Source of the DNA: Haliotis cracherodii
Lineage: Eukaryota
Assembly: GCF_022045235.1 (NCBI RefSeq)
Contig: NW_027266319.1
Location: forward strand, 41,540,001 to 41,604,000
Reading direction: 5' to 3'
Length of the DNA: 64,000 nt
Positions 2,176-57,130 of the stretch are shown here, piece after piece (position 1 is the first letter of the stretch; each line of letters opens with the position of its first letter). The notes under the pieces are model-generated. The model was not told the DNA's origin. It ran no database searches and saw only the letters and a program-made list of their open reading frames with translations. The position numbers were made by a program, and so were the translations under genes.

Positions 2176-2349
2176 GTTTGGCGCCGCACCCAGCAATATT
2201 TCAGCTATATGGCGGCAGTCTGTAAATAATTGAGTCTGGACCAGACAATCCAGTGATTGACATCATGAGTATCGATCCGCGCAATTGGGATACGATGACA
2301 TGCATCAACCAAGTCAGCGAGCCTGACGACCCGATCCCGTCAGTCGCCC
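2176..2349 (-). mobile_element. Family A SINE, 3' part, interrupted by the Ginger element
   Basis: Reverse complement of the 911-1166 family. It continues at 17217-17270 on the other side of the transposon. Confidence 0.85.
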
Positions 2350-2586
2350 TGTTACGACGTAAATTGTAATAACGCGGTAAATTGTAATAAACTGCGGTAA
2401 AATGTAATAACACTGCGGTAAAATGTAATTCTGCGGTAAATTGTAATACATACTGCGGTAAATTGTAATAACTTCACTGCGGTAAATTGTAATAAAAACT
2501 GCGGCAAATTGTAATAACTTAAACTGCGGTAAATTGTAATAAAACTGCGGTAAATTGTAATAACCATTGCGGTAAATTGTAATAAC
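2350..2586 (+). repeat. Left TIR with 11 copies of the GCGG(T/C)AAATTGTAAT motif
   Basis: Reverse complement of 16975-17211 with 2 mismatches by eye. The motif recurs every ~19-24 bp. Confidence 0.92.
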
Positions 2587-4360
2587 ATCTCCTAATCCTT
2601 CCGATTTCAAACTGAATTCAAGTTCCAGTGTTTGTTGGACCTTAACATGATCAATTCCAACCTCCAGCATGTTTAAGAAAATATAAAAAAGCGATTTTGT
2701 TTCAATTTCTATCATTTCTATTGAAACACAGGTGCGGCAAATTGTAACAAACTGTGGCAAATTGTAATACCAAGTGCGGTAAATTGTAATAACATCTCCT
2801 AATCCTTCCGATTTCAAACTGAATTCAAGTTCCAGTGTTTGTTGGACCTTAACAAGATCAATTCCAACCTCCAGCATGTTTAAGAAAATTCAAAAAAGCG
2901 ATTTTGGTTCAATTTCTATCATTTCTATTGAAACACTGGTTCGGCAAATTGTAACAAACTGCGGCAAATTGTAATACCAAGTGCGGTAAATTGTAATAAC
3001 ATCTCCTAATCCTTCCGATTTCAAACTGAATTCAAGTTCCAGTGTTTGTTGGACCTTAACAGAGATCAATTCCAACCTCCAGCATGTTTAAGAAAATAAA
3101 AAAAAGCAATTTTGTTTCAATTTCTATCATTTCTATTGAAACACTGGTTCGGCAAATTGTAACAAACTGCGGCAAATTGTAATACCAAGTGCGGTAAATT
3201 GTAATAACATCTCCTAATCCTTCTGATTTCAAGCTGAATTCAAGTTCCAGTGTTTGTTGGACCTTCACATGATCAATTCCAACCTCCAGCATGTTTAAGA
3301 AAATAAAAAAATCCGATTTTGTTTCAATTTTTATCATTTCTATTGAAACACAGGTGCGGCAAATTGTAACAAACTGCGGCAAATTGTAATACCAAGTGCG
3401 GTAAATTGTAATAACATCTCCTAATCCTTCCGATTTCAAACTGAATTCAAGTTCCAGTGTTTGTTGGACCTTAACAGAGATCAATTCCAACCTCCAGCAT
3501 GTTTAAGAAAATAAAAAAATCCGATTTTGTTTCAATTTCTATCATTTCTATTGAAACAATGGTGCGGCAAATTGTAACAAACTGCGGCAAATTGTAATAC
3601 AAAGTGCGGTAAATTGTAATAACATCTCCTAATCCTTCCGATTTCAAACTGAATTCAAGTTCCAGTGTTTGTTGGACCTTAACAAGATCAATTCCAAGCT
3701 CCAGCATGTTTAAGAAAATTCAAAAAAGCCATTTTGTTTCAATTTCTTTCATTTCTATTGAAACACTGGTTCGGCAAATTGTAACAAACTGCGGCAAATT
3801 GTAATACCAAGTGCGGTAAATTGTAATAACATCTCCTAATCCTTCCGATTTCAAACTGAATTCAAGTTCCAGTGTTTCTTGGACCTTAACAAGATCAATT
3901 CCAACCTCCAGCATGTTTAAGAAAATAATAAAAGCGATTTTTTGTCTATTCTATCATTTCTATTGAAACACAGCTGTGGCAAATTGTAATACCAAGTGCG
4001 GTAAATTGTAATAACATCTCCTAATCCTTCCGATTTCAAACTGAATTCAAGTTCCAGTGTTTGTTGGACCTTAACAAGATCAATTCCAACCTCCAGCATG
4101 TTTAAGAAAATAAAAAAAGCGATTTTGTTTCAATTTCTATCATTTCTATTGAAACACAGGTGTGGCAAATTGTAACAAACTGCGGCAAATTGTAATACCA
4201 AGTGCGGTAAATTGTAATAACATCTCCTAATCCTTCCTATTTCAAACTGAATTCAAGTTCCAGTGTTTGTTGGAACTTAACAAGATCAATTCCAACCTCC
4301 AGCATGTTTAAGAAAATTAAAAAAAGCGATTTTGTTTCAATTTCTATCATTTCTATTGAA
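2575..4360 (-). repeat. Left subterminal satellite array, ~9 x ~207-bp units
   Basis: CCAGCATG recurs at ~2664, 2871, 3079, 3286, 3494, 3701, 3908, 4093 and 4299 (one unit is shortened). The array is inverted relative to the right array. Confidence 0.95.
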
Positions 4361-4484
4361 AGACTCAGTCTCGACGACATATTAAAACATTCCAGAATGT
4401 TTATAATGTTTTAATGTGTTTAATATTTTTTAAGCGTAGTCTGAAATGAAAGTCACCAGTTTGAACAAAACTCGAGTGAGAAAT

Positions 4485-4617
4485 GGCGATTTCTTGTTAT
4501 TGGTTTCATTGGTCGGTCAAAGTTGGCGAAAGGACCTTCTGACGACACCCGTAATGTGATGTCCTTAGATCTTTGATGAGCGTTACCGATAAATAAGATC
4601 TGATTTTTATGCGGTTA
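4485..4617 (+). mobile_element. Diverged terminal fragment of the MITE family seen at 50030-50628
   Basis: TGGTCGGTCAAAGTTGGCGAAAGGACCTTCTGACG...AGATCTGATTTTTATG aligns by eye to 50500-50628. Confidence 0.65.
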
Positions 4618-5844
4618 ATAATAAACTGTTACATTTTGTATCACTTTGCCATCGATTTTTAATATGCTCGTTGCAATTGTCAAAGTCAAAAACCCTAATG
4701 AGATCCTATCTACATGGTCACACCCGGACTGGTGATTGTTAAGAACACAAATCCTATTTACATTCTGACAACATGGCAGTCTACATTCATTTACAATACA
4801 ACCTTATTATTAGCGGTATCATCCTCTCATTAATTCTTCCAAAACAGATAACGTCTGTAATTTTCAATTAAAGTCAGAAAAATGACACCTGGAATGAAAT
4901 CAAACTTGGTTGTTTGCAACGTAATATTAGCGGGATCATTACGGTCGTTGTCATGTGATCGACGAAATAAACCAAAGTGCCAAAAAAAACAGATCATGAA
5001 ACACATGTCGTCTGACGGTTGTCGTGTCGGATAATTATTTATCCTTTGATCGTAATTACAATCAAAGAATCCGTCGGGGTGCGATCGTGCGCTTGGGGTA
5101 AATTTGCGTCTCATTCCTTTACCTTTGCCCAGTCCACCTGCATAATTACTTCACTAAATACACTTGGAAGGACAACCCTGAATAAACAATGATCAGTGAC
5201 ACTGATTAGTGACAATATCCCATAAATCTGTTGCTGATTGGATAGAGCAACATGTAAAACTCTTTGGGGCACCTTTCGCTACACCATTATTGTGTCAGCC
5301 GAAGATTTTACAATTCCCATAGCATACAACCCAGCAACCAGTCAGCCGAAAATTTGATCTCCAGTGATATCATTCTTCATCGGATGTGAGGATTTTCAGT
5401 AAGAGATTACCCGTTTGCAGAACAGTTCCTCATAAGGTGTGAGCAACTTTCAGAAAAGGATTACCAATTAGCAGAACAGTTCTTCATCGCACAACACCAC
5501 GCAGTAAGTCGGCCATCTTTCTGTATATGTAATGGAGTTTTAATATATATTATATTGCTATGTAACGAACTTTGCTTTTCAGTGTACTTTAAAACAAATA
5601 ATTCGGTATCTTGAGAAATATAGCTTTCTTAATGTTAATAGTAATGCTTTTCTAATATTAATGTGGAATCTGACTGCTAGTTTCTAATCTTTATAATATC
5701 TTTTTGTGAGCCACATAAAAATCTGTTTCGGAAAAATGGATGGAGATTGATTATAATCTGGCACTTTGAATGTTGATGATACTGTTTCAAACCTTTAATA
5801 ACAAAGTGGCCGATCTCCGCTCTAAATATAAGGCTTTTCAAATA

Positions 5845-6140
5845 TCCGCGGCAGCCTTCCTCTATAGAAAAAGTTTTCTAATATCTATGTTTAATGATAT
5901 TGATAGGTTGCAACCTTTCGCAAAGCGGCAGCCTTCCGCTATAGAAATAGTGATTTTTCTAATATCTGTGTTTAATCATATTGATAGTTTCTAACCTTTA
6001 GCAAAGCGGCAGCCTTCCGCTATAGAAATAGTGCTTTTTCTAATATCAGTGTTTAATCATATTGATAGTTTCTAACCTTTAACTAAGCGGCAGCCTTCCG
6101 CTATAGAAATAGTGCTTTTCTAATATCTGTGTTTAATGAT
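5845..6140 (+). repeat. ~81-bp tandem repeat (~4 copies) inside the transposon
   Basis: GCGGCAGCCTTCC recurs at ~5848, 5925, 6006 and 6087, with a further partial copy at ~6404. Confidence 0.85.
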
Positions 6141-6212
6141 GCTATAGAAGTCTTCAAATCACTGATGATATCAGGATAATATTCAGCTTTTAATCCTTTC
6201 TAACCTTTAGCG

Positions 6213-6388
6213 GGGGCACGGGTGGCCCAGTCGTCCAAGGCGCCGCGATTCGCTTTGCAGAGTTGCGTCCCTTGGGCACATCAGAAACCTATGATTGTGG
6301 GTTCGAATGTTTCCTCCCACATTGAGCTGAAACGCCGTGTTATAACTGTAATAATGTTGAAAGCGGCGTTATACCCAACTCACTCACT
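6213..6388 (+). mobile_element. tRNA-derived SINE (family B) inside the transposon
   Basis: A-box-like GTGGCCCAGTCG, B-box-like GGTTCGAAT, and the tail GCGGCGTTATACCCAACTCACTCACT. Related pieces occur at ~1797-1860, 33290-33490 (-), 35400-35610 (-) and 49370-49545 (-). Confidence 0.7.
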
Positions 6389-8962
6389 CTAACCTCAAGC
6401 ACAGCGGCAGCCTTTTGCTATATGAATGATGTGACGTTTGTTTTTCATATTGATGTTTTAATGAAACCGAACGTTGCAATCATTTCACATAACCATACAT
6501 CATAACAATTGGTCTTCTGATATTATCTGAGGGAATAATGTCACTGAAAAATAAAGTAGCTAATACAACACATCCGCTAGTTTAGTATAGTTCAAAGCTT
6601 ATTTTGCTTGAAACACAGGTTTTATTTAATTTATATCTTTTTCTGTAGCCTAATTCTGAGTATTTCTAACTAATTACAATTAGCTAGATGTATTTGGTCA
6701 AGACATTAAATGTTGATTTCTTATAGTATTTGTTATTAATTAAAATCGTGCAATTTTCGCGGCTTGTATTTTCATATGAAGGTTCAATAACAAAGGTTAT
6801 AAAAACAATGAGATGATTTACTTAATTTGTGATTAAAGTATGTGTCAATATTGCCACTTTTTAGAATCACCAAATCTTGTTCTGGATGTATGTTGGTGTA
6901 TGAGGTGATGTTGAAAGTGAACCTGTGCCTTCGTTCTCTGTGATAGAACAAAGTCAACTTTCCGCAAACATGCTATGATTGAAAATGTTTGATTAGTTAT
7001 TAGAAAAAAATATACCAGTATATAACACTATTGTGTCGGAGTAGAGAAGTTATTTTCATCAAACGAACGTCTTTCTTTGATATTATTTATACAGTCAGTC
7101 TATACAGACCCAACGCCACTTTTAACAATATTTCAGTTATATGACGGCGTTAAAGTCTATTAAGTCTCCTAGAACTTGTCCATTACCATAGCAAGTAAAA
7201 GTTTTGAAAGCAATTTCTACTCCACTGTTTAACAACTGGGGTATCTGACAACAAATGGGGTTTTGACCAATTGGAATATGCCAATGAACCGATGTATAAC
7301 GAAATATATACAGTACTCTGCATAGACGCCCGTCTGTATTTTGGAAAGTATATGCTTTTGTCTGACTCTGAAAACACTCAGTAAATATTTAGAATAGAAT
7401 CAGATCAATGCTGACATGTCTTCGTGTTTGTAACTTACTGAACTTTACTCAGTTGATAAATGTAAATTTCATTTATATCAATGTCTGTCCCATCCACTTT
7501 ACTGATCGGAAATTATCTAGAATTGTCCTATCGCAATATTTCCACGCTTGTCAGGCTGACACTTTCTTGAAATACAATCAAAAGTAGTCTGTGTATTATT
7601 GCCTATTGATCCCCTGTTTTATTAACTTATTCTTTACTTTAGTTCTTCAGTCACTATATATTCACTATGATGAATTGCAATTTTCATTGTGTGTATATTT
7701 ATACACTTGTTTCTCTTTCAACCTCTCTACAGAAGGAAATCAATGTAATAATTATTAGATGAATGAAGTTGGTAGTATATTAATCAAGTAATTCAGTTGA
7801 AATATATCCGACCAGATATAACCTGATTTAATCGTTAGGCTCCCAGCAGAGGGCAAGGCGTGAGGCACTAGTTGTTGATAGACATCCGATGGAACAAATG
7901 TGTTAGCAAATAGCTTGGTCACCAAATAATTGGTCACCAAACCTGCTTCACCAACCAATATAGAAAACAAGCATTTACTGCATTGTATTACAGAAGGTAA
8001 AGTTATTAACTTAGAAGTAGAAGTGGACAGCAAATATTGAATACAGGATGCAATGGTAGGCATTGACTGGATTGTCTGGGGTGAGCGAGTGTAGGCGAGA
8101 CATCACAGCAGGCAGAGAACACATGATGGAATCTGTAAACGTCATTACGACAATATTGCCTACATCTCTTCTATTATTAGTATAGTAACTTCTTGTACAT
8201 AGTTTCCATCTTGTTTTATATAATTCTACAAGGTTCTGATCCGAATTACAGCGTCTTGTTTTACTCAATTCTTATGTACTTAAACTTATATATCCGATTT
8301 TCTATCGAAATGCTTTTCAATAATTTACAATCTGCAAACATCCCCCCATCCATAAAACCTTAATGTACTTAAAGTTGCTGAGGTTACACATTGCATTTAA
8401 AGCAACGCATCTTACAATATATAGAGAGGTTCTGTCATTTTAGTGGCTACACATTCAGTTTCTTTTGCATTAATTTATCCACAAACACACAGACCACGCC
8501 TTCTAGCGGGGAGCTTTAGACGCGTGTGTCACATTGCCCTGAAACACTGATTTCGTATCGTTGTCTAAAGTGTTTTTGTGTTTACGATTAAATAAGCAGA
8601 TTGTGAAGTTATTTTTGTTACTTTTTAAATCAGAATCGACGATGATTTTTACACCCTGTTTTTTCATGTTATTTCCCCCATAAATTATATTCCCTACATA
8701 ATATCTAAATCACGCGCTGTCTTCTCCGTTTCAATAAATTGTTAAGTTGATGCTTTTTTATGTAAAATTTAGACATTAAATTAAATATTCGACGTTTACT
8801 TCTAATTTAACATGACTTTACTTTTACATACATTTGCGTCCATTTGAATTCACAAGTAAGTTGCTACTTTCTTCCAGTGTTGCCAAAGTTGCTCATTGGT
8901 GCGCGAAGGATGTCCAACTGACCCCGGTTTTGTTCAAAGGACGTTCACGTACATTTTCAACC

Positions 8963-11554
8963 ATGCATGCACTCGTTGTAGCAGTTCTGTGCTGTTTGAC
9001 TTTGATTAACTGTAACGCGGCAGAAACGAAACGCAAATATACGCATAGCTTTGATGAAGAAACATATGATACTATTGTGTTACTCGTGCAAGGTAATTTT
9101 GAAACACCGGTCGCCGAAAGGACAAGAGTGCAGCGAAATGCCATTGTTAGATACTGGAGAAGAAAACACGACTTCTCTACAGGACCCGAGCCAAGCAACA
9201 TATTGTACTTTAGAGGAAAACCAGTCTTAAAACGAAAGGAAGTTGCAAAGCTTGTCGAAAATGTATTTCACAACCAGAAATCAGCAGGCTACAGAAAGTT
9301 ATGGCATTTGGCAGCTGATTCTTTGTCAGGGCTTACAGAGACCGCAGTACGGAACGAACTACGCACGAAAGAGAAATATTCCATTCACTCTGCCAAGTTT
9401 ACAAATAAAGCTATCATCAGACCAGTGAGAGCAAAGTGTGTCCAATCACACCACCAAGTTGACCTCGTAGATTTTAGCAAAAGTGCTGTTCGGTGGAAAG
9501 GGAAAACATATAAATTCGTCCTGTCTCTTGTAGATGTGTTCAGTAGATATATATGGCTTGTGGCATTGCAAACAAAGAAAAGCAAATGTGTAGCCAGTGC
9601 TCTGCGGGTGATCTACGAAGAACATGGACCACCTAACAAGTTACAAATGGACCAGGGTGTCGAATTTAAAGGACATGTAAATGAACTTTGTAAAACCCTA
9701 AAAATCAAACCCATACGCAGTAGACCTTACCACCCTCAATCTCAAGGAAAGGTGGAGAGATCCCATAGACAATTGAAAAAGAAAATAATGTATGATTTTG
9801 TAACTATGGGCGCCAAGGGCGTCAACTGGGCGTCACATTTGCGAAGATATGCCTCAATACTGAATAACGAAAAGAAAGAATGTTTAGGATGGCAGAGTTC
9901 CTTTGAAGTGTATTTCGGAAGAAAATCTAACACGGCTTTAGACGTTGATTCAGATGATTTCAATGCTGATATGATGATTGAAAATATTCATGAGCCTAAC
10001 GCAAAGGACAGGTTGAAGCAGAGTAAGTATGTTACTCGGACTAGACATCGGGCTGAAGTTGCTACAAAGAAAACCGACAGACTCAGTATACAAAGACAAC
10101 GAAGACTGCATCCGCCCTCGGTGTACAATGTAGGCGATGATGTTTTATGCAAATATGGTTCCAAGAAGGGAAAACTCGCCCCTAAAAAACAGTACGTTGT
10201 AAAAGGAAGGATTCTTGCACGCAGGTTGAAATCGTCTATGTATAAGATTTCATTCACAAATCCTATTACAGGAAAAGAGGACACGCCTGAATGGATTTCA
10301 GTTGATAGGTTGTCAAGTACCACAATTGATGAAGAGGTAAAACGAAAACAGAGGGCTTCCTCGAGACTACAGCGCAGACATCATCGAGCAAAGTATCAAA
10401 TACCATTATTGGACACAGACAGGCCATTTGCATTACAAGGTGACATCGTGTATGACACTCCGGGAAACGGTAACTGTCAGTTTGCAGCCTTGTGCCATCT
10501 TTTATCTAAAATTGGTATATTCAGATCGCCCAGGACACTTCGAGAACAGGTTGTCAGTTACCTCCTTGAACATCCCTACACTTCAGATGGATCCCCCTTG
10601 GAACTTTTCGTGGGCGAAGACTGGGATACATACATATCCGGTATGTTAGAGGAAGGTACCTACGGAGATCACATAACACTGCAAGCAGTCTCAGATATGT
10701 TTAATGTTGATATTATCGTGCACTCATCGCTTGGCGGTGATGCTACTGTAAACATCGTTCCTGCATACAGTGTAGCAACCCAAACAATCAGTCTTGGCCA
10801 TTTTGCTGAAGAAGAAGGGGAACACTATGTTGCTCTACAACTACATGAAACCCAAAGTGAAGATCAGCCACGAGACGGGGAAGGAAACAGAAACTTGCCA
10901 AGACAAGTCTTTGACAGCGCAAATAGCGGCGACGAAGAACACAACTTATCTCGACAGCATCATTCGCAATGTGATGATGATGAGTTTTTAGACATGCAAG
11001 GGAACATAAATGAAGGCTTCAACAGAACCAACAGCAGCGATGAAGAACAAGGTCATTCTCCGAGTAAGGATCGAGAGCCATTGGACATGCAGGGGGACCT
11101 AAATGAAGGCTTTTACAGTACCAACAGCAGCGATGAAGAAGTATTCCTCTCATGTCGAAAAGACAAGATGCCACAATATGATACGCAGGTTGCATTCACT
11201 GATCTGCCAAACGAGGTGGTGCTTCTAATCATTGAAGTATCTTTACAGCTAGCCCAGCAGTCGTCTGACAGATTATTGTGCAAGACTGTTACATCTTTCC
11301 TGCAAGTGTCCCATCAGTTCCATCAACACACAAGATCATTTCTCCATCTGCGACCACGCATTTATTGCCCACACATTACTATTTCAAGAACCGTTAGTGT
11401 GCGTAGAATCATAATGCACTATGGAAAAAGTAGCGGTGTTGCAATAGAACTCAAAAGAATAATTAGCCATAGAAAGTGGATCAACGCATGGCTACTTCTA
11501 GAAGAGAATGCGTTCGAATGGTATGCAATAATAGACATATTTTGGAAAAAGTAG
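8963..11554 (+). CDS. Ginger-type transposase: DDE integrase + SH3-like + OTU cysteine protease + F-box-like motif
   Basis: The frame is open from 8834; the first ATG is at 8963. Integrase motifs: QVDLVD (D at 9461), LQMDQGVEF (D at 9650), PYHPQSQGKVERSH (E at 9755). OTU motifs: DTPGNGNCQFAAL (C at 10475), GTYGDHITLQA and EHYVAL (H at 10823). F-box-like FTDLPNEVVLLII at ~11195. The true start is uncertain. Confidence 0.9.
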   Translation: MHALVVAVLCCLTLINCNAAETKRKYTHSFDEETYDTIVLLVQGNFETPVAERTRVQRNAIVRYWRRKHDFSTGPEPSNILYFRGKPVLKRKEVAKLVENVFHNQKSAGYRKLWHLAADSLSGLTETAVRNELRTKEKYSIHSAKFTNKAIIRPVRAKCVQSHHQVDLVDFSKSAVRWKGKTYKFVLSLVDVFSRYIWLVALQTKKSKCVASALRVIYEEHGPPNKLQMDQGVEFKGHVNELCKTLKIKPIRSRPYHPQSQGKVERSHRQLKKKIMYDFVTMGAKGVNWASHLRRYASILNNEKKECLGWQSSFEVYFGRKSNTALDVDSDDFNADMMIENIHEPNAKDRLKQSKYVTRTRHRAEVATKKTDRLSIQRQRRLHPPSVYNVGDDVLCKYGSKKGKLAPKKQYVVKGRILARRLKSSMYKISFTNPITGKEDTPEWISVDRLSSTTIDEEVKRKQRASSRLQRRHHRAKYQIPLLDTDRPFALQGDIVYDTPGNGNCQFAALCHLLSKIGIFRSPRTLREQVVSYLLEHPYTSDGSPLELFVGEDWDTYISGMLEEGTYGDHITLQAVSDMFNVDIIVHSSLGGDATVNIVPAYSVATQTISLGHFAEEEGEHYVALQLHETQSEDQPRDGEGNRNLPRQVFDSANSGDEEHNLSRQHHSQCDDDEFLDMQGNINEGFNRTNSSDEEQGHSPSKDREPLDMQGDLNEGFYSTNSSDEEVFLSCRKDKMPQYDTQVAFTDLPNEVVLLIIEVSLQLAQQSSDRLLCKTVTSFLQVSHQFHQHTRSFLHLRPRIYCPHITISRTVSVRRIIMHYGKSSGVAIELKRIISHRKWINAWLLLEENAFEWYAIIDIFWKK

Positions 11555-12039
11555 TTTTAAAAAGACATTGCCATCATATATTGAGCGAGACTGACGATTT
11601 TGAAACACCAGGGTTCGTCGAATTGACATCTCTGGCATCGTTGTCACATGGTTGGTTCATCGTTCATTTTGTCCATCATTCTGTATCTCTCTCTTTTCCG
11701 TTATCGAATATTTGGATATCAACAATTTCATTGCCTCTTTTTGAACAGTTCATATGTGAGTTTAATGTCTGGACATGTGTCATTTTAGTCTTTTCAGGGA
11801 GGGCTGTTCAAAATTAAATTAAATGGGGACATTATAAATGTATGGGATATTTGAAGGATCGTGTTTCATGTCAAAACATGTAATCTTATATATTTTCGAT
11901 GGTGGTACCAGTGTGAAGTATAGGAATATCAGGGTTCGACTTCCATGTAGAATACTTGTACATTTTCAACGCACATATATTCCTTCCGTTCAATTCGCAG
12001 CAGTTTTTTGCAGTTTGTAAACTTTTGCCGCATCTGATT

Positions 12040-15000
12040 AGAATAATAGAAATTGAAGCAAAATCGCTTTGTCTTCTTTTTCTAAAACATGCTGGATGTT
12101 GTCATTGATCATGTTAAGGTCCAACAAACACTGGAACTTGAATTCAGTTTGAAAAAGGAAGGATTAGGAGATGTTATTACAATTTACCGCACTTGGTATT
12201 ACAATTTGCCGCAGTTTGTTACAATTTGCCGCACCTGTGTTTCTATAGAAATGATAGAAATTGAAACAAAATCGCTTTTTTTATATTTTCTTAAACATGC
12301 TGGAGGTTGGAATTGATCATGTTAAGGTCCAACAAACACTGGAACTTGAATTCAGTTTGAAATCGGAAGGATTAGGAGATGTTATTACAATTTACCGCAC
12401 TTGGTATTACAATTTGCCGCAGTTTGTTATTATTTGTCGCACCTGTGTTTCAATAGAAATGATAGAAATTGAAACAAAATGGCTTTTTTTTTATTTTCTT
12501 AAACATGCTGGAGGTTGGAATTGATCTTGTTAAGTTCCAACAAACACTTGAACTTGAATTCAGTTTGAAATCGGAAGGATTAGGAGATGTTATTACAATT
12601 TACCGCACTTGGTATTACAATTTGCCGCAGTTTGTTACAATTTGCCGAACCTGTGTTTCAATAAACATAATAGAAATTGAAACAAAATCGCTTTTTTTAT
12701 TTATTTAAACATGCTGGAGGTTGGAATTGATCTTGTTAAGTTCCAACAAACACTGGAACTTGAATTCAGTTTGAAATTGGAAGGATTAGGAGATGTTATT
12801 ACAATTTACCGCACTTGGTATTACAATTTGCCGCAGTTTGTTACAATTTGCCGAACCTGTGTTTCAATAAACATAATAGAAATTGAAACAAAATCGCTTT
12901 TTTTATTTATTTAAACATGCTGGAGGTTGGAATTGATCATGTTAAGGTCCAACAAACACTGGAACTTGAATTCAGTTTGAAAAAGGAAGGATTAGGAGAT
13001 GTTATTACAATTTACCGCACTTGGTATTACAATTTGCCGCAGTTTGTTACAATTTGACGCACCTGTGTTTCAATAAACATAATAGAAATTGAAACAAAAT
13101 CGCTTTTTTTATTTATTTAAACATGCTGGAGGTTGGAATTGATCTTGTTAAGTTCCAACAAACACTGGAACTTGAATTCAGTTTGAAATTGGAAGGATTA
13201 GGAGATGTTATTACAATTTACCGCACTTGGTATTACAATTTGCCGCAGTTTGTTACAATTTGCCGCACCTGTGTTTCAATAAACATAATAGAAATTGAAA
13301 CAAAATCGCTTTTTTTATTTATTTAAACATGCTGGAGGTTGGAATTGATCTTGTTAAGTTCCAACAAACACTGGAACTTGAATTCAGTTTGAAATCGGAA
13401 GGATTAGGAGATGTTATTACAATTTACCGCACTTGGTATTACAATTTGCCGCAGTTTGTTACAATTTGACGAACCTGTGTTTCAATAAACATAATAGAAA
13501 TTGAAACAAAATCGCTTTTTTTATTTATTTAAACATGCTGGAGGTTGGAATTGATCATGTTAAGGTCCAACAAACACTGGAACTTGAATTCAGTTTGAAA
13601 AAGGAAGGATTAGGAGATGTTATTACAATTTACCGCACTTGGTATTACAATTTGCCGCAGTTTGTTACAATTTGCCGAACCTGTGTTTCAATAAACATAA
13701 TAGAAATTGAAACAAAATCGCTTTTTTTATTTATTTAAACATGCTGGAGGTTGGAATTGATCATGTTAAGGTCCAACAAACACTGGAACTTGAATTCAGT
13801 TTGAAAAAGGAAGGATTAGGAGATGTTATTACAATTTACCGCACTTGGTATTACAATTTGCCGCAGTTTGTTACAATTTGCCGCACCTGTGTTTCTATAG
13901 AAATGATAGAAATTGAAACAAAATCGCTTTTTTTATATTTTCTTAAACATGCTGGAGGTTGGAATTGATCATGTTAAGGTCCAACAAACACTGGAACTTG
14001 AATTCAGTTTGAAATCAGAAGGATTAGGAGATGTTATTACAATTTACCGCACTTGGTATTACAATTTGCCGCAGTTTGTTATTATTTGTCGCACCTGTGT
14101 TTCAATAGAAATGATAGAAATTGAAACAAAATGGCTTTTTTTTATTTTCTTAAACATGCTGGAGGTTGGAATTGATCTTGTTAAGTTCCAACAAACACTT
14201 GAACTTGAATTCAGTTTGAAATCGGAAGGATTAGGAGATGTTATTACAATTTACCGCACTTGGTATTACAATTTGCCGCAGTTTGTTACAATTTGACGAA
14301 CCTGTGTTTCAATAAACATAATAGAAATTGAAACAAAATCGCTTTTTTTATTTATTTAAACATGCTGGAGGTTGGAATTGATCTTGTTAAGTTCCAACAA
14401 ACACTGGAACTTGAATTCAGTTTGAAATTGGAAGGATTAGGAGATGTTATTACAATTTACCGCACTTGGTATTACAATTTGCCGCAGTTTGTTACAATTT
14501 GCCGAACCTGTGTTTCAATAAACATAATAGAAATTGAAACAAAATCGCTTTTTTTATTTATTTAAACATGCTGGAGGTTGGAATTGATCATGTTAAGGTC
14601 CAACAAACACTGGAACTTGAATTCAGTTTGAAAAAGGAAGGATTAGGAGATGTTATTACAATTTACCGCACTTGGTATTACAATTTGCCGCAGTTTGTTA
14701 CAATTTGCCGAACCTGTGTTTCAATAAACATAATAGAAATTGAAACAAAATCGCTTTTTTTATTTATTTAAACATGCTGGAGGTTGGAATTGATCTTGTT
14801 AAGTTCCAACAAACACTGGAACTTGAATTCAGTTTGAAATTGGAAGGATTAGGAGATGTTATTACAATTTACCGCACTTGGTATTACAATTTGCCGCAGT
14901 TTGTTACAATTTGCCGCACCTGTGTTTCAATAAACATAATAGAAATTGAAACAAAATCGCTTTTTTTATTTATTTAAACATGCTGGAGGTTGGAATTGAT

Positions 15001-16670
15001 CTTGTTAAGTTCCAACAAACACTGGAACTTGAATTCAGTTTGAAATCGGAAGGATTAGGAGATGTTATTACAATTTACCGCACTTGGTATTACAATTTGC
15101 CGCAGTTTGTTACAATTTGACGAACCTGTGTTTCAATAAACATGATACAAATTGAAACAAAATCGCTTTTTTTTATTTATTTAAACATGCTGGAGGTTGG
15201 AATTGATCATGTTAAGGTCCAACAAACACTGGAACTTGAATTCACTTTAAAATAGGAAGGATTAGGAGATGTTATTACAATTTACCGCACTTGGTATTAC
15301 AATTTGCCGTGGTTTGTTATAATTTGCCGCACCTGTGCTCAATAGAAATGATAGAAATTGAAACAAAATCGCTTTTTTTTATTTTCTTAAACATGCTGGA
15401 GGTTGGAATTGATCCTGTTAAGTTCCAACAAACACTGGAACTTGAATTCAGTTTGAAATAGGAAGGATTAGGAGATGTTATTACAATTTACCGCACTTGG
15501 TATTACAATTTGCCGCAGTTTGTTACAATTTGCCGCACCTGTGTTTCAATAAACATAATAGAAATTGAAACAAAATCGCTTTTTTTATTTATTTAAACAT
15601 GCTGGAGGTTGGAATTGATCTTGTTAAGTTCCAACAAACACTGGAACTTGAATTCAGTTTGAAATCGGAAGGATTAGGAGATGTTATTACAATTTACCGC
15701 ACTTGGTATTACAATTTGCCGCAGTTTGTTACAATTTGACGAACCTGTGTTTCAATAAACATGATACAAATTGAAACAAAATCGCTTTTTTTAATTTATT
15801 TAAACATGCTGGAGGTTGGAATTGATCATGTTAAGGTCCAACAAACACTGGAACTTGAATTCAGTTTGAAAAAGAAAGGAATAGGAGATGTTATTACAAT
15901 TTACCGCACTTGGTATTACAATTTGCCGCAGTTTGTTACAATTTGCCGAACCTGTGTTTCAATAAACATAATAGAAATTGAAACAAAATCGCTTTTTTTT
16001 ATTTATTTAAACATGCTGGAGGTTGGAATTGATCATGTTAAGGTCCAACAAACACTGGAACTTGAATTCAGTTTGAAAAAGGAAGGATTAGGAGATGTTA
16101 TTACAATTTACCGCACTTGGTATTACAATTTGCCGCAGTTTGTTACAATTTGCCACACCTGTGTTTCAATAGAAATGATAGAAATTGAAACAAAATCGCT
16201 TTTTTTTATTTTCTTAAACATGCTGGAAATTGGAATTGATCTTGTTAAGGTCCAACAAACAGTGGAACTTGAATTCAGTTTGAAATAGGAAGGATTAGGA
16301 GATGTTATTACAATTTACCGCATTTGGTATTACAATTTGCCGCAGTTTGTTATAATTTGCCGCACCTGTGTTTCAATAGAAATGATAGAAATTGAAACAA
16401 AATCGCTTTTTTTATATTTTCTTAAACATGCTGGAGGTTGGAATTGATCTTGTTAAGTTCCAACAAACACTGGAACTTGAATTCAGTTTGAAATAGGAAG
16501 GATTAGGAGATGTTATTACAATTTACCGCACTTGGTATTACAATTTGCCGCAGTTTGTTACAATTTGACGAACCTGTGTTTCAATAAACATGATACAAAT
16601 TGAAACAAAATCGCTTTTTTTTAATTTCCTTCTTGAACATGCTGGAGGTTGGAATTGTTCATGGAATTTG
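12040..16670 (+). repeat. Right subterminal satellite array, ~22 x 206-208-bp units
   Basis: CATGCTGGAGGTTGG recurs every 206-208 bp from 12088 to 16426, with a partial copy at 16638. Each unit has three TTACAATTT(A/G)CCGCA motifs. Confidence 0.95.
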
Positions 16671-16765
16671 AATTTGGTTCATAGTAAACGCAAATATCCA
16701 GAATTTAATGTTCATTAGTGTTTATCAATCAATCATTTCAAAGTCAGGAATGTGATTTCCAAACA

Positions 16766-16834
16766 TTACTTACTTACTTACTTAATTTGGAGATTTAACG
16801 TGCGCTTTCCGACTGATGCGTATTTCGCGCACGG
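16766..16834 (-). mobile_element. ~70-bp retroposed element with (TAAG)n tail
   Basis: 12-bp TSD GATTTCCAAACA at 16754-16765 and 16835-16846. A second copy is at 28167-28236. Confidence 0.8.
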
Positions 16835-16907
16835 GATTTCCAAACAGCTTGGTCGCACATTTTATACTTCATGCAAGTTTCTTTGTATATTTGCAAATCA
16901 ATAATCT

Positions 16908-17211
16908 TTATTACAATTTACCGCAGTGGTTATTACAATTTGCCGCAGTTTTTATTACAATTTACCGCAGTGAAGTTATTACAATTTACCGCAGTGGTTA
17001 TTACAATTTACCGCAGTTTTATTACAATTTACCGCAGTTTAAGTTATTACAATTTGCCGCAGTTTTTATTACAATTTACCGCAGTGAAGTTATTACAATT
17101 TACCGCAGTATGTATTACAATTTACCTCAGAATTACATTTTACCGCAGTGTTATTACATTTTACCGCAGTTTATTACAATTTACCGCGTTATTACAATTT
17201 ACGTCGTAACA
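16908..17211 (-). repeat. Right TIR plus extra motif copies (14 motifs)
   Basis: 16975-17211 is the reverse complement of 2350-2586. Three additional motifs lie at 16908-16975. Confidence 0.92.
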
Positions 17212-17216
17212 CGCCC

Positions 17217-53430: not shown

Positions 53431-53507
53431 CCGCAAAGGCAGGTTAGGAAACCAATCTCTATCCAATGATCGTGAGTATCTCAAATGGTATGCCGGTATT
53501 GTTTCAG

Positions 53508-54266
53508 GGCGTTCCCGACCTGTTGCAACAGGGACCCACATCCGTTGTCCACTCCAAGTTCGAAGGTGACCTGTCCGAGTCCGTGTTTGTCCACTCCAAC
53601 CTACGGAGCGTTACTTACAACTCCGGAGGTCAAGGTTATTACGAGGCTCTCGCACGGCGCACTGATGGTGGGGAACGTGCTCCATCAGGAGCAACCAAGC
53701 CAGTGCCCGCACCGAGAACAACTATTCAGTCTCCGAGGCGGCTGTCGTCGGGGAACAACGACTACCTTGATTTGGAGGAGGATTCCCAACAGACCGATGG
53801 AACACAACCCAGTGTTAGCAATCCATACTTCGTCCTTGAACCCAGCGCAGAGACAAGCCCCGTGTTACCAGAGGCATCAAGTGTTGGTGTAGATGGGGAA
53901 TATATGAAGTTAGATGACGAGAACGGTCAGAATAGTGCAACGACTGGGAAAAGAGATGTGGGGAATGATGGATGCTGTAGCAAAACACCCCCGCTGGGAG
54001 GCAATGAAGTTCATGATTACCAAAAACTCAACAAGCCCAGCCTGGGCCAGATGGACTCTGTGAGTCACCGTGGGGATGACTATGAGTTTCCCTTGTCACC
54101 AGACGCAGGGTTTGACTTGGCCACGACCTACAAACAGAGCGAGGAAGACAGGAGAAGTACTTGTTCACCAGACTATCAGAGATTAACAGGACCTGCTATT
54201 CAGCAGCATCAACCAGACACAGGGGAGCCTGAGATAAAAAATGACTACTTCGTGCTGGAGAAGTAG
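53508..54266 (+). CDS. Orphan receptor, last exon: tyrosine-motif-rich cytoplasmic tail
   Basis: Acceptor gtttcag, phase 0, and a 252-aa open frame. It contains YEAL, YLDL, YFVL, YMKL, YQKL, YQRL and YFVL. Confidence 0.82.
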   Translation, partial: GVPDLLQQGPTSVVHSKFEGDLSESVFVHSNLRSVTYNSGGQGYYEALARRTDGGERAPSGATKPVPAPRTTIQSPRRLSSGNNDYLDLEEDSQQTDGTQPSVSNPYFVLEPSAETSPVLPEASSVGVDGEYMKLDDENGQNSATTGKRDVGNDGCCSKTPPLGGNEVHDYQKLNKPSLGQMDSVSHRGDDYEFPLSPDAGFDLATTYKQSEEDRRSTCSPDYQRLTGPAIQQHQPDTGEPEIKNDYFVLEK

Positions 54267-55615: not shown

Positions 55616-57130
55616 TACTGAACCGCAAAAGTAACATTGCATGGAAAGTTGTCATTTAAATATCTGGGTACTTTTTGACAAAGTTTCTAAAATTTAACAT
55701 TACCTTGTCCGGAAAAATGAAATTTGATGGTAAAAAACAAAGCAGACAATAATAAAACCGATCGTCCAAACGCATCACAGCAACGGCCATGGTAACCCGA
55801 TGCACGTGAGTTCCGTGCAAATTGAAATGCACATGCGTTCCCCCATTTCATGCCCTATAAAAATCCGACCAGATCGGATAACATTCATTCGTTATTGAAT
55901 TGCTACCATATACAAAGATTGACAAGAAATCAGCGACACCAAGCCCTTGGACGATTGCAAGCTGGACAAACCGCCCGGCAAGTAGCCAATGCATTTCAAG
56001 TCCACGTAAGTACCATATACAGGCTCCAGCAACGGTACCAGACCACCAAAACTACAGAAGACCGACCACTGTCACCGCCGGACGTCAGGATCGTCAGATT
56101 GTGCGACAGCATCTTCAAGATCGCTTTGTTACTGCTGCGGAAACTGCTCGACAGACCATGGGGACACACAGGCGACACATTAGTGTGGACATCGTGCGTC
56201 GACGATTGACGAACAGACACCTCCACTGTCACAGGCCACACCGAGGACCCATTCTGACACCATGTCATCGCCGGGACCATCAAAAGTGGGCAACACAGCA
56301 CCAGCATTGGCGCCACCAGCAGTGGAGAAGAGTCATCTTCTCAGTCAAGCCGTTACTGTATCTCAACAGCAGATGGCAGAGGGAGAGTCTGGCAACACCG
56401 TGGAGAACGTTATTCGGATGCTTGTGTTGTTGAGAGCGACTCGTGGAGTGGTCCGAGCATCATGGTGTGGGATGGCATTGGTGTTGCACAGAGGGTCGGC
56501 CCTATGGTCTTCCAGAACATCGGTCAAGGGAGAGGCAATGGTGTCACAGCAGCTCGGTACATTGATCAAGTATTGAGACCACACGCCATACCTCATTTGG
56601 CATGTCGACGCAACCATGGGTTTCAATATGATAACGCCGGTGCCCAAACTGCGAGAGCAACAAGAGACTTCCTCCAACAGAATGGCCTCAGAACAATGCA
56701 GGGCAGGAGTGGCCTGCCTTCAGTCCTGATTTAAATCCCATTGAGCACCCGTGGGACGAGATTCAAAGACGGCTGAATGACGTCCGACCAAGGCCGACAA
56801 CTGCAGCTGAACTGCGTCAAGCGTTCCTCAGAGTGTGGGCTCAAGTGCCTATGGCCTTCATCAACCGTCTCATCCATTCCATGTATCAACGTTGCACGGC
56901 AGTCATCAATGCACATGGCGGACTCACGAGATACTGACTTGTGATGCCATTTCCTCACAGACTTGTGTTGTGTTTCAATTTAAGAACAGTTGACACTTTA
57001 ATTTCAACCTTGATTATCACTTTTTCTAAGTTTCATCTTTTTTATATGTCTCAAAGTATGTTTAGAGTGTTTAGACAAATAAGGTTTCTCATATATCTAT
57101 CCAGGGTGATGTTTGTTTTGTGTTTAAGTA
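55616..57130 (+). mobile_element. Tc1-like DNA transposon, decayed
   Basis: TA-flanked degenerate TIRs (TACTGAACCGCAAAAGTAACA / TGTTTGTTTTGTGTTTAAGTA) surround a frameshifted transposase. Confidence 0.85.
55909..56937 (+). pseudogene. Tc1 transposase pseudogene
   Basis: A paired-like HTH (ALGRLQAGQTARQVANAFQVHVSTIYRL), WRRVIFS, MVWDGI, FQYDNA, WPAFSPDLNPIEHPW and GGLTRY* are spread over several frames. The start codon is lost. Confidence 0.9.

Follow-up and report, generated by a model that had tools for sequence, protein, structure and literature searches.

A 64,000-nucleotide stretch of the Haliotis cracherodii genome (contig NW_027266319.1, positions 41,540,001 to 41,604,000; hereafter the window) carries a long open reading frame (ORF) that a first reading, made from the sequence only, had described as a transposase fused to both an OTU deubiquitinase and an F-box-like module. 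The locus thus raises the question of whether one chain can hold both an activity that removes ubiquitin and a module that recruits a ubiquitin ligase, and in which compartment such a transposase would work. The answer that we favour, with modest confidence, is that the ORF encodes a Ginger-related transposase with a likely signal peptide, a DDE integrase, an OTU domain and a predicted Skp1-binding F-box, which would pass through the lumen of the endoplasmic reticulum (ER) and then return to the cytosol and the nucleus.

One reading frame and its domains

All the motifs quoted in the sequence-only reading share a single + strand frame (8816-11554, 912 amino acids (aa) from stop to stop, whose numbering is used here for all residues): GNGNCQF with C554, EHYVAL with H670, the acidic linker, FTDLPNEVVLLII...FLQVSHQF and the Trp-rich tail. 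The first ATG, at 8963 in the context ACC ATG, is the most likely start of translation and gives 863 aa up to the stop at 11554; the 906 aa claimed before are not borne out. The next Met is frame residue 278, past the first catalytic Asp. A gene model labelled Haliotis cracherodii matches part of the protein exactly. The frame is divided as follows.

8963..9019, + strand: likely signal peptide, with Met-His, a 13-residue hydrophobic core and small residues at the predicted cut
9029..9037, + strand: basic cluster KRK behind the leader, a possible nuclear signal; most homologues, leader-bearing or not, have basic runs at this place
9041..9400, + strand: integrase N-terminal region, at the position of YPYY and H2C2, zinc ligands absent (Y84 in 43/44, P98 in 36/48, W114 in 37/50)
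9401..9931, + strand: DDE integrase-type catalytic core, D216/D279/E314 (PF00665, E 7e-12)
10103..10330, + strand: integrase C-terminal domain, aligning to the Ty3 integrase tail
10433..10840, + strand: OTU cysteine-protease domain, C554 and H670 (PF02338, E 6e-10; Cys in 82/86, His in 73/76)
10841..11185, + strand: acidic, variable and internally duplicated linker, carrying all four N-x-S/T sequons of the protein
11195..11344, + strand: F-box of three helices, predicted to bind Skp1
11348..11554, + strand: Trp-rich 68-aa alpha/beta domain and stop (W888 in 130/132, W892 in 126/132, S873 in 128/132)

The catalytic core matches the Pfam rve profile above its cut-off, its catalytic columns are kept in 73/74 (D216), 87/88 (D279) and 90/90 (E314) homologues, and the integrase region matches the PFV and Ty3 integrases. 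The residues Y84, P98 and W114 are kept at the place expected for YPYY and may correspond to it, and for H2C2 we found neither a Pfam match nor conserved H-H-C-C columns in the homologue alignment. A literal GPY or GPF motif occurs in 0 of the 90 aligned proteins, though the surrounding domain aligns with that of Ty3. These 90 are the query plus 89 of the 109 matches of the whole-protein search, the self-derived model and 19 Gypsy Pol proteins having been excluded.

The claim that the OTU domain keeps its Cys and His holds: the domain lies above the Pfam cut-off, it aligns with OTUD5, OTUD3 and OTUD1, and both residues are present in 51 of the 52 proteins bearing the C-terminal module. The domain is likely to be an active deubiquitinase. 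The acidic linker also stands where it had been placed, between the OTU domain and the F-box.

The F-box and the Trp-rich domain

In the alignment, 52 of the 90 proteins carry the C-terminal module, and many of the other 38 look truncated (not each was inspected). The LPxE motif on which the F-box assignment leaned is conserved: among 47 full-length modules from the whole-protein search, L797 is kept in 45, P798 in 41, E800 in 37, I805 in 45, V831 in 40 and F835 in 42, and the pattern is equally kept across 132 segments from a representative search (179 found). When only the C-terminal 126 aa were used as query, the single match was the gene model of this element; it was the whole-protein and representative searches that gave the family. 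The Pfam check came out divided, as PF00646 is matched by 20/113 relatives at E<=1 and by 5/113 at E<=0.001 (best 2.7e-7), whereas the window copy itself falls below the cut-off. The predicted C-terminal model (predicted local distance difference test (pLDDT) score 94.8) has three F-box-like helices followed by an alpha/beta domain. Structure comparison of the F-box gave generic helical matches only (Z up to 5.4), the fold search found no match at E<=0.001 in either the PDB or the viral libraries, and comparison with the Atlas gave F-box clusters at 0.85-0.87, to be taken as leads only. Profile matches to the MDA5 CARD and to ZAP were rejected as weak (E 0.2-0.5). As a family trait we hold the F-box to be real with high confidence.

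When co-folded with Skp1, as the sequence-only reading had proposed, the segment docks on the C-terminal helices of Skp1 through aa 791-836, with a score of 0.76 against 0.02 for the best control; the runs share at least 82% of the contacts and the partner pLDDT is at least 51. In calibration, the mark was reached by 51/78 solved microbial pairs and 2/108 mismatched ones, and by 71/105 solved eukaryotic pairs and 2/126 unrelated ones. Binding of Skp1 by the F-box is thus predicted from the model. None of the findings that the sequence-only reading had named as refuting was obtained in these analyses, and its inference of one chain that would both remove ubiquitin and recruit a ligase is supported; self-protection, remodelling of target chromatin or degradation of a silencing factor may be the purpose.

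The Trp-rich tail had been left unassigned, and it turns out to be a conserved and confidently predicted domain (pLDDT 95) without a clear structural match. Four Trp are retained in it, as are a turn of the form Gly-x-x-Ser-Gly and the basic end. Its best structural matches are ribosomal L22-type chains and, since a Z of 3.6 is weak, no fold was assigned to it; the Atlas comparison of this part gave no match. Because of its position behind the F-box, it is likely to be the substrate-binding part. The same F-box and Trp-rich module was also seen behind an Integrase_H2C2 fragment (P0156, E 4e-7) and, in P0153, ahead of a stretch with no Pfam match that we take to resemble the start of a Ulp1 domain.

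Leader and sequon depletion

The leader was absent from the sequence-only reading and alters the mechanistic picture. In 23/33 non-redundant N-complete homologues a hydrophobic core comes no more than ten residues after a Met; the null, scored at a stricter threshold that leaves 22/33 of the homologues, showed the same in 22/391 ATG-started open frames of host non-coding DNA, at 80/10,210 arbitrary positions and at 4/408 acceptor-like sites. In most homologues the Met stands 0-10 residues ahead of the core, often as M-K/R, the cores are Ala/Val-rich, and the uncharged runs extend over 12-25 residues including the polar end, mostly ending in small residues. Among 43 metagenome rows, which are redundant and include many broken copies, the core is present in 25, and 8 of the 10 rows with both Met and core have a purine at -3. 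A shared splice acceptor was not found, 5/18 sequences having no YAG between core and domain. The N-terminus is very probably a real signal peptide.

If the working protein met the glycosylation enzyme of the ER, avoidance of sequons in its folded domains would be expected. In the folded domains of 61 non-redundant proteins we counted 78 N-x-S/T sequons against 161 expected, and 84 further C-terminal fragments gave 28 against 56. The observed-to-expected ratios of nine control patterns were 0.74-1.38, those for the sequon in the linker, in Gypsy Pol and in distant relatives were 0.94, 1.21 and 1.57, and the ratio was 0.40 in the leader-bearing lineage vs 0.85 in nine proteins of the leaderless side. 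In a column-wise test N-x-S/T was the lowest of 178 patterns (z -5.8). This loss gives moderate support to exposure of the working protein to the ER lumen, and we consider it fairly probable that the working pool crosses it.

Where the protein would act

In the reading that we favour, the leader would direct the chain into the ER and be cleaved, exposing the basic nuclear signal, and selection against sequons would keep the domains unglycosylated. Retro-translocation would then return the protein to the cytosol, either in the cell of origin or in another one that took it up once secreted, and the OTU domain would strip the ubiquitin added during this return or by its own SCF, so that the protein escapes the proteasome. 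The F-box is predicted to dock with SCF (Skp1-Cul1) of the host, and the Trp-rich domain that follows to select a host protein for ubiquitylation; with this factor removed, transposition would follow with a 5-bp stagger.

That the protein acts in another cell is a tentative and rather unlikely extension. In its fullest form, which we judge unlikely, a secreted transposase would be exported via the ER and taken up by other cells, such as germ cells with a silenced element, where the OTU domain would guard the protein, the F-box would destroy a restriction or silencing factor and the integrase would mobilise resident copies in trans.

Several observations weigh against passage through the ER or against the activities assumed for the domains. 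The residue at His+2, which is Asp or Asn in OTUD enzymes, is V, L, I or Y in 72/72 homologues, so that deubiquitinase activity may be weak or may rely on E665, which lies five residues before H670, is conserved in 71/78 and may stand in for the Asp or Asn. In the window copy the F-box-like Pfam match reaches only E 1.9 (C-terminal 126 aa; 8.7 bits vs a cut-off of 24.3). The co-fold was run without alignments and with a snail Skp1 in place of the host protein (94% to the host's exon region); as F-box and Skp1 are a textbook pair, the pass shows likeness and not cellular binding, and may stem from likeness to solved complexes. The leader was scored with an ad hoc hydropathy rule and not with a trained signal-peptide predictor; core and Met occur together in only 10/43 metagenome rows, and 10/33 N-complete proteins have no leader. 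The leaderless subgroup begins at the basic cluster and some of its members keep the OTU domain and the F-box, so the leader is not required for the module. The rows of the sequon test are mutually related, and at 50% redundancy N-x-S/T ranks 2/163 (z -3.45); moreover, depletion is no stronger for N-x-T than for N-x-S, N-P-S/T likewise falls short (2 vs 5.9 expected), and the leaderless group itself shows 25 vs 29 expected (z -2.0). Finally, return from the ER is demanding for a large basic protein, and our literature search gave no secreted transposase.

The alternative that survives best, although we think it unlikely, takes the protein as a nuclear deubiquitinase and SCF adaptor with a self-limiting leader, most of the product being wasted into the ER and only the fraction that misses import going on to transpose. 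It would explain why leaderless relatives retain the OTU domain and the F-box, and it agrees with the established location of DNA, ubiquitin and Skp1, the partners of catalysis, which are all nucleocytoplasmic. However, wasted protein needs no sequon avoidance, yet sequons are halved in the folded domains only, and a start at the downstream Met would not yield an intact enzyme.

A further alternative, compatible with either trafficking model and in our opinion improbable, concerns the F-box, which would be a Skp1 decoy that sequesters or de-ubiquitylates SCF while the Trp-rich domain binds DNA or membrane. The presence on the same chain of an OTU domain, which would reverse the output of SCF, and the lack of a clear structural assignment for the Trp-rich domain fit such a decoy, but substrate receptors are usually laid out in this way, with a conserved folded domain directly behind the F-box, and the two co-occur in the 132 aligned segments.

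We regard as still less probable that the leader is an uncleaved membrane anchor with a lumenal N-terminus, which would keep the transposase at the ER or the nuclear envelope, on the side of the cytosol or nucleoplasm, where the OTU domain and the F-box would act on membrane-near substrates. Every domain would then stay on the correct side of the membrane, and the basic cluster after the hydrophobic stretch fits the positive-inside rule; however, the uncharged runs are short and their small-residue ends resemble cleavable peptides, and sequon depletion would be left unexplained. Lastly, that the leader is an artefact, the pyrimidine-rich end of an intron translated by mistake while the real start lies in an exon upstream, has some basis in the intron-bearing relatives of genome G000 (L181), which have an acceptor at about this place, but is very improbable given the position of the Met, the composition of the cores, the low acceptor-like null and an AG that is not conserved.

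A single chain with both a ubiquitin eraser and a recruiter of the writer lets the role of ubiquitin pathways in transposition, an older guess (see the main text of PMC2836005), be tested directly, and the binding partner of the 68-aa domain could reveal a host anti-transposon factor. If the passage through the ER is true, a transposase routed via the secretory pathway would be a new step in the life of DNA transposons and might matter for spread from soma to germline, and a secreted transposase would let a DNA transposon act across cells by a capsid-free route.

The transposon and its surroundings

The ORF is carried by what is almost certainly a recently active cut-and-paste DNA transposon, 14,862 bp long (2350-17211) and with termini TGT...ACA, framed by the following features.

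2345..2349: left 5-bp target site duplication, the identical 5 bases standing at the right end
2350..2586, + strand: left terminal inverted repeat (TIR), TGTTA start, tandem units of ~22 bp; 237 bp, matching the right end at 99%
2525..4365: left subterminal array, ~207-bp units in the orientation opposite to that of the right array
4366..8962: inner 5' region, devoid of long ORFs and likely to hold the promoter and the untranslated region
12043..16657: right subterminal array, in which a 206-bp unit occurs 22 times
16975..17211, - strand: right TIR, ACA end
17212..17216: right 5-bp target site duplication

The outer TIRs are thus nearly identical, and arrays of a 206-207-bp unit sit inside both element ends in mutually inverted orientation. 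A 5-bp target duplication flanks 11/11 copies with both ends located (the window copy and 10 others), and these duplications are GC-rich, with 39/55 bases being G or C across copies. In genome G000, for which the copy counts are lower bounds, at least 16 copies match the element core at 96-100%, and the frame from the ATG to the last codon is open in 10/16. The 863-aa ORF is the sole long gene of the element: the ORF scan found no second long ORF in it and none of at least 150 aa in 4366-8962. Short, very-high-copy interspersed repeats (very high contig depth) are nested in the 5' region at 6211-6390 and 7112-7150, and no tRNA was called in them.

Sequencing runs that we guessed to be RNA gave short contigs that lie on the ORF, show no canonical splice joints and inform neither on expression nor on splicing; two of them show an 11-base deletion just 5' of the ATG at a depth below 5. 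Near-identical sequence to 8800-11600 occurs in runs with several organism labels, one run covering it at ~99%, and at 11534-11628 the contigs from two runs of a single organism lack 93 bases, a gap whose ends are not those of a splice and which removes the last codons of the Trp-rich domain. Elsewhere in the window, 55882-56734 contains broken transposase frames, presumably Tc1/mariner-like from their motifs, and 53448-54266 contains an open frame rich in Tyr motifs that may be a host exon.

Relatives of the protein are labelled Oculina, Montipora, Lytechinus and Mytilus. Those in metagenomes are compact, with ~4.3-5.7 kb between inverted repeats, and some have identical TGT ends. In G000 we also observed multi-copy, intron-bearing relatives with a zinc-less integrase and an OTU exon (L181:4730-9830, L182, L054 and L055), whose first matched exon has no leader. 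Tandem broken C-terminal modules of a second family, ~50% identical, lie at G000:C15:8.37-8.54 Mb (L022-L028) and in L030, this cluster adjoining Tc1-like transposase frames. A viral origin of the element was rejected because viral contigs gave only distant integrases. A quick tree of the core only (104 rows with Gypsy, Polinton and unnamed relatives; short and duplicate rows dropped) groups the OTU/F-box proteins at a Shimodaira-Hasegawa-like approximate likelihood ratio test (SH-aLRT) value of 90, but a long Polinton branch was pulled in, so the tree was used neither for classification nor to order the gains and losses of the leader.

Comparison with known systems

We place the element in a Ginger-related lineage, with no subgroup given. 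The sequence-only reading had brought in Ginger through its OTU fusions, and the likeness to OTU-bearing Ginger1 stands: a DDE core like that of Gypsy integrases, TGTNR ends (here TGTTA), GC-rich targets and a C-terminal OTU domain are features listed in the main text on Ginger1 (PMC2836005), and the TIR falls in the 40-270 bp range (here the 237-bp outer TIR, plus kilobase inverted arrays). Strict membership of Ginger1 does not stand, as the duplication there is of 4 bp (CCGG/CCGT) and here of 5 bp in 11/11, and the H2C2 zinc finger and GPY/F present there are absent here, where an F-box, a Trp-rich domain and a leader are added. According to the same text, Ginger1 DNA transposons carry OTU or Ulp1 tails (PMC2836005), and our relatives P0087, P0086 and P0089 carry OTU or Ulp1; true Ginger1 elements, too, may possess the F-box and Trp-rich module. 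In its main text the Ginger1 paper has 0 mentions of "F-box" and "signal peptide" (Bao, Kapitonov, Jurka 2010, PMC2836005).

With Ginger2/TDD the element shares TGT ends, the lack of GPY/F and a 5-bp duplication as in TDD-4 and TDD-5, the duplications of that group being of 4 or 5 bp in the available text of PMC10045372; the targets there are AT-rich and the H2C2 finger is present, whereas here the targets are GC-rich, H2C2 is missing and OTU and F-box tails are found. IS3EU/GingerRoot elements differ in having TA...TA ends and a 6-bp duplication (available text of PMC6839031 and PMC10045372). The integrase without HHCC is a likeness to Polinton/Maverick elements, but these have polymerase, ATPase and capsid genes and a 6-bp duplication, while the present element differs in its ends and duplication length and has only one long ORF, which is also true of its compact coral relatives. 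The true Polintons of G000 (L183-L186) are separate from the element and distant to it; these Polinton/Maverick-like elements are found in many copies (C14:158100-187800 and C12:45466000-45475900), with frames that we take from their motifs to be an integrase, a polymerase-like, an ATPase-like and a capsid-like protein.

Zisupton elements, which have a Ulp1 tail, use an unrelated KDZ-type transposase, whereas here F-box and OTU are borne by an integrase-type enzyme in a lineage conserved across phyla. An F-box is noted for one Zisupton isoform (main text of PMC12062965). Viral F-box adaptors, such as the F-box proteins of giant viruses, resemble our protein in joining a parasite-encoded F-box to a C-terminal domain, and most top rows of the viral-library Foldseek search were F-box proteins, all with E above 0.5; in our case, however, the module is fused to a transposase and a deubiquitinase in a non-viral element. 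OTU domains are present in Helitrons too (available text of PMC6431247 and PMC11417382), and the available text of PMC3575427 leaves OTU, F-box and signal all unmentioned.

In the literature searched, which did not extend to Repbase, to subscription papers or to the supplement of PMC12062965 (whose domain-pair table may list integrase plus F-box), we found neither an F-box nor a signal peptide in any integrase-type transposase, Zisupton being the sole F-box precedent; as Repbase was outside the search, the family may be catalogued there. A 2025 screen found, as its main text puts it, no evidence of F-box domain capture by transposons (PMC12062965). In contrast, the active, duplication-flanked element described here carries an F-box, and this F-box is conserved in coral-labelled relatives and in marine metagenome contigs.

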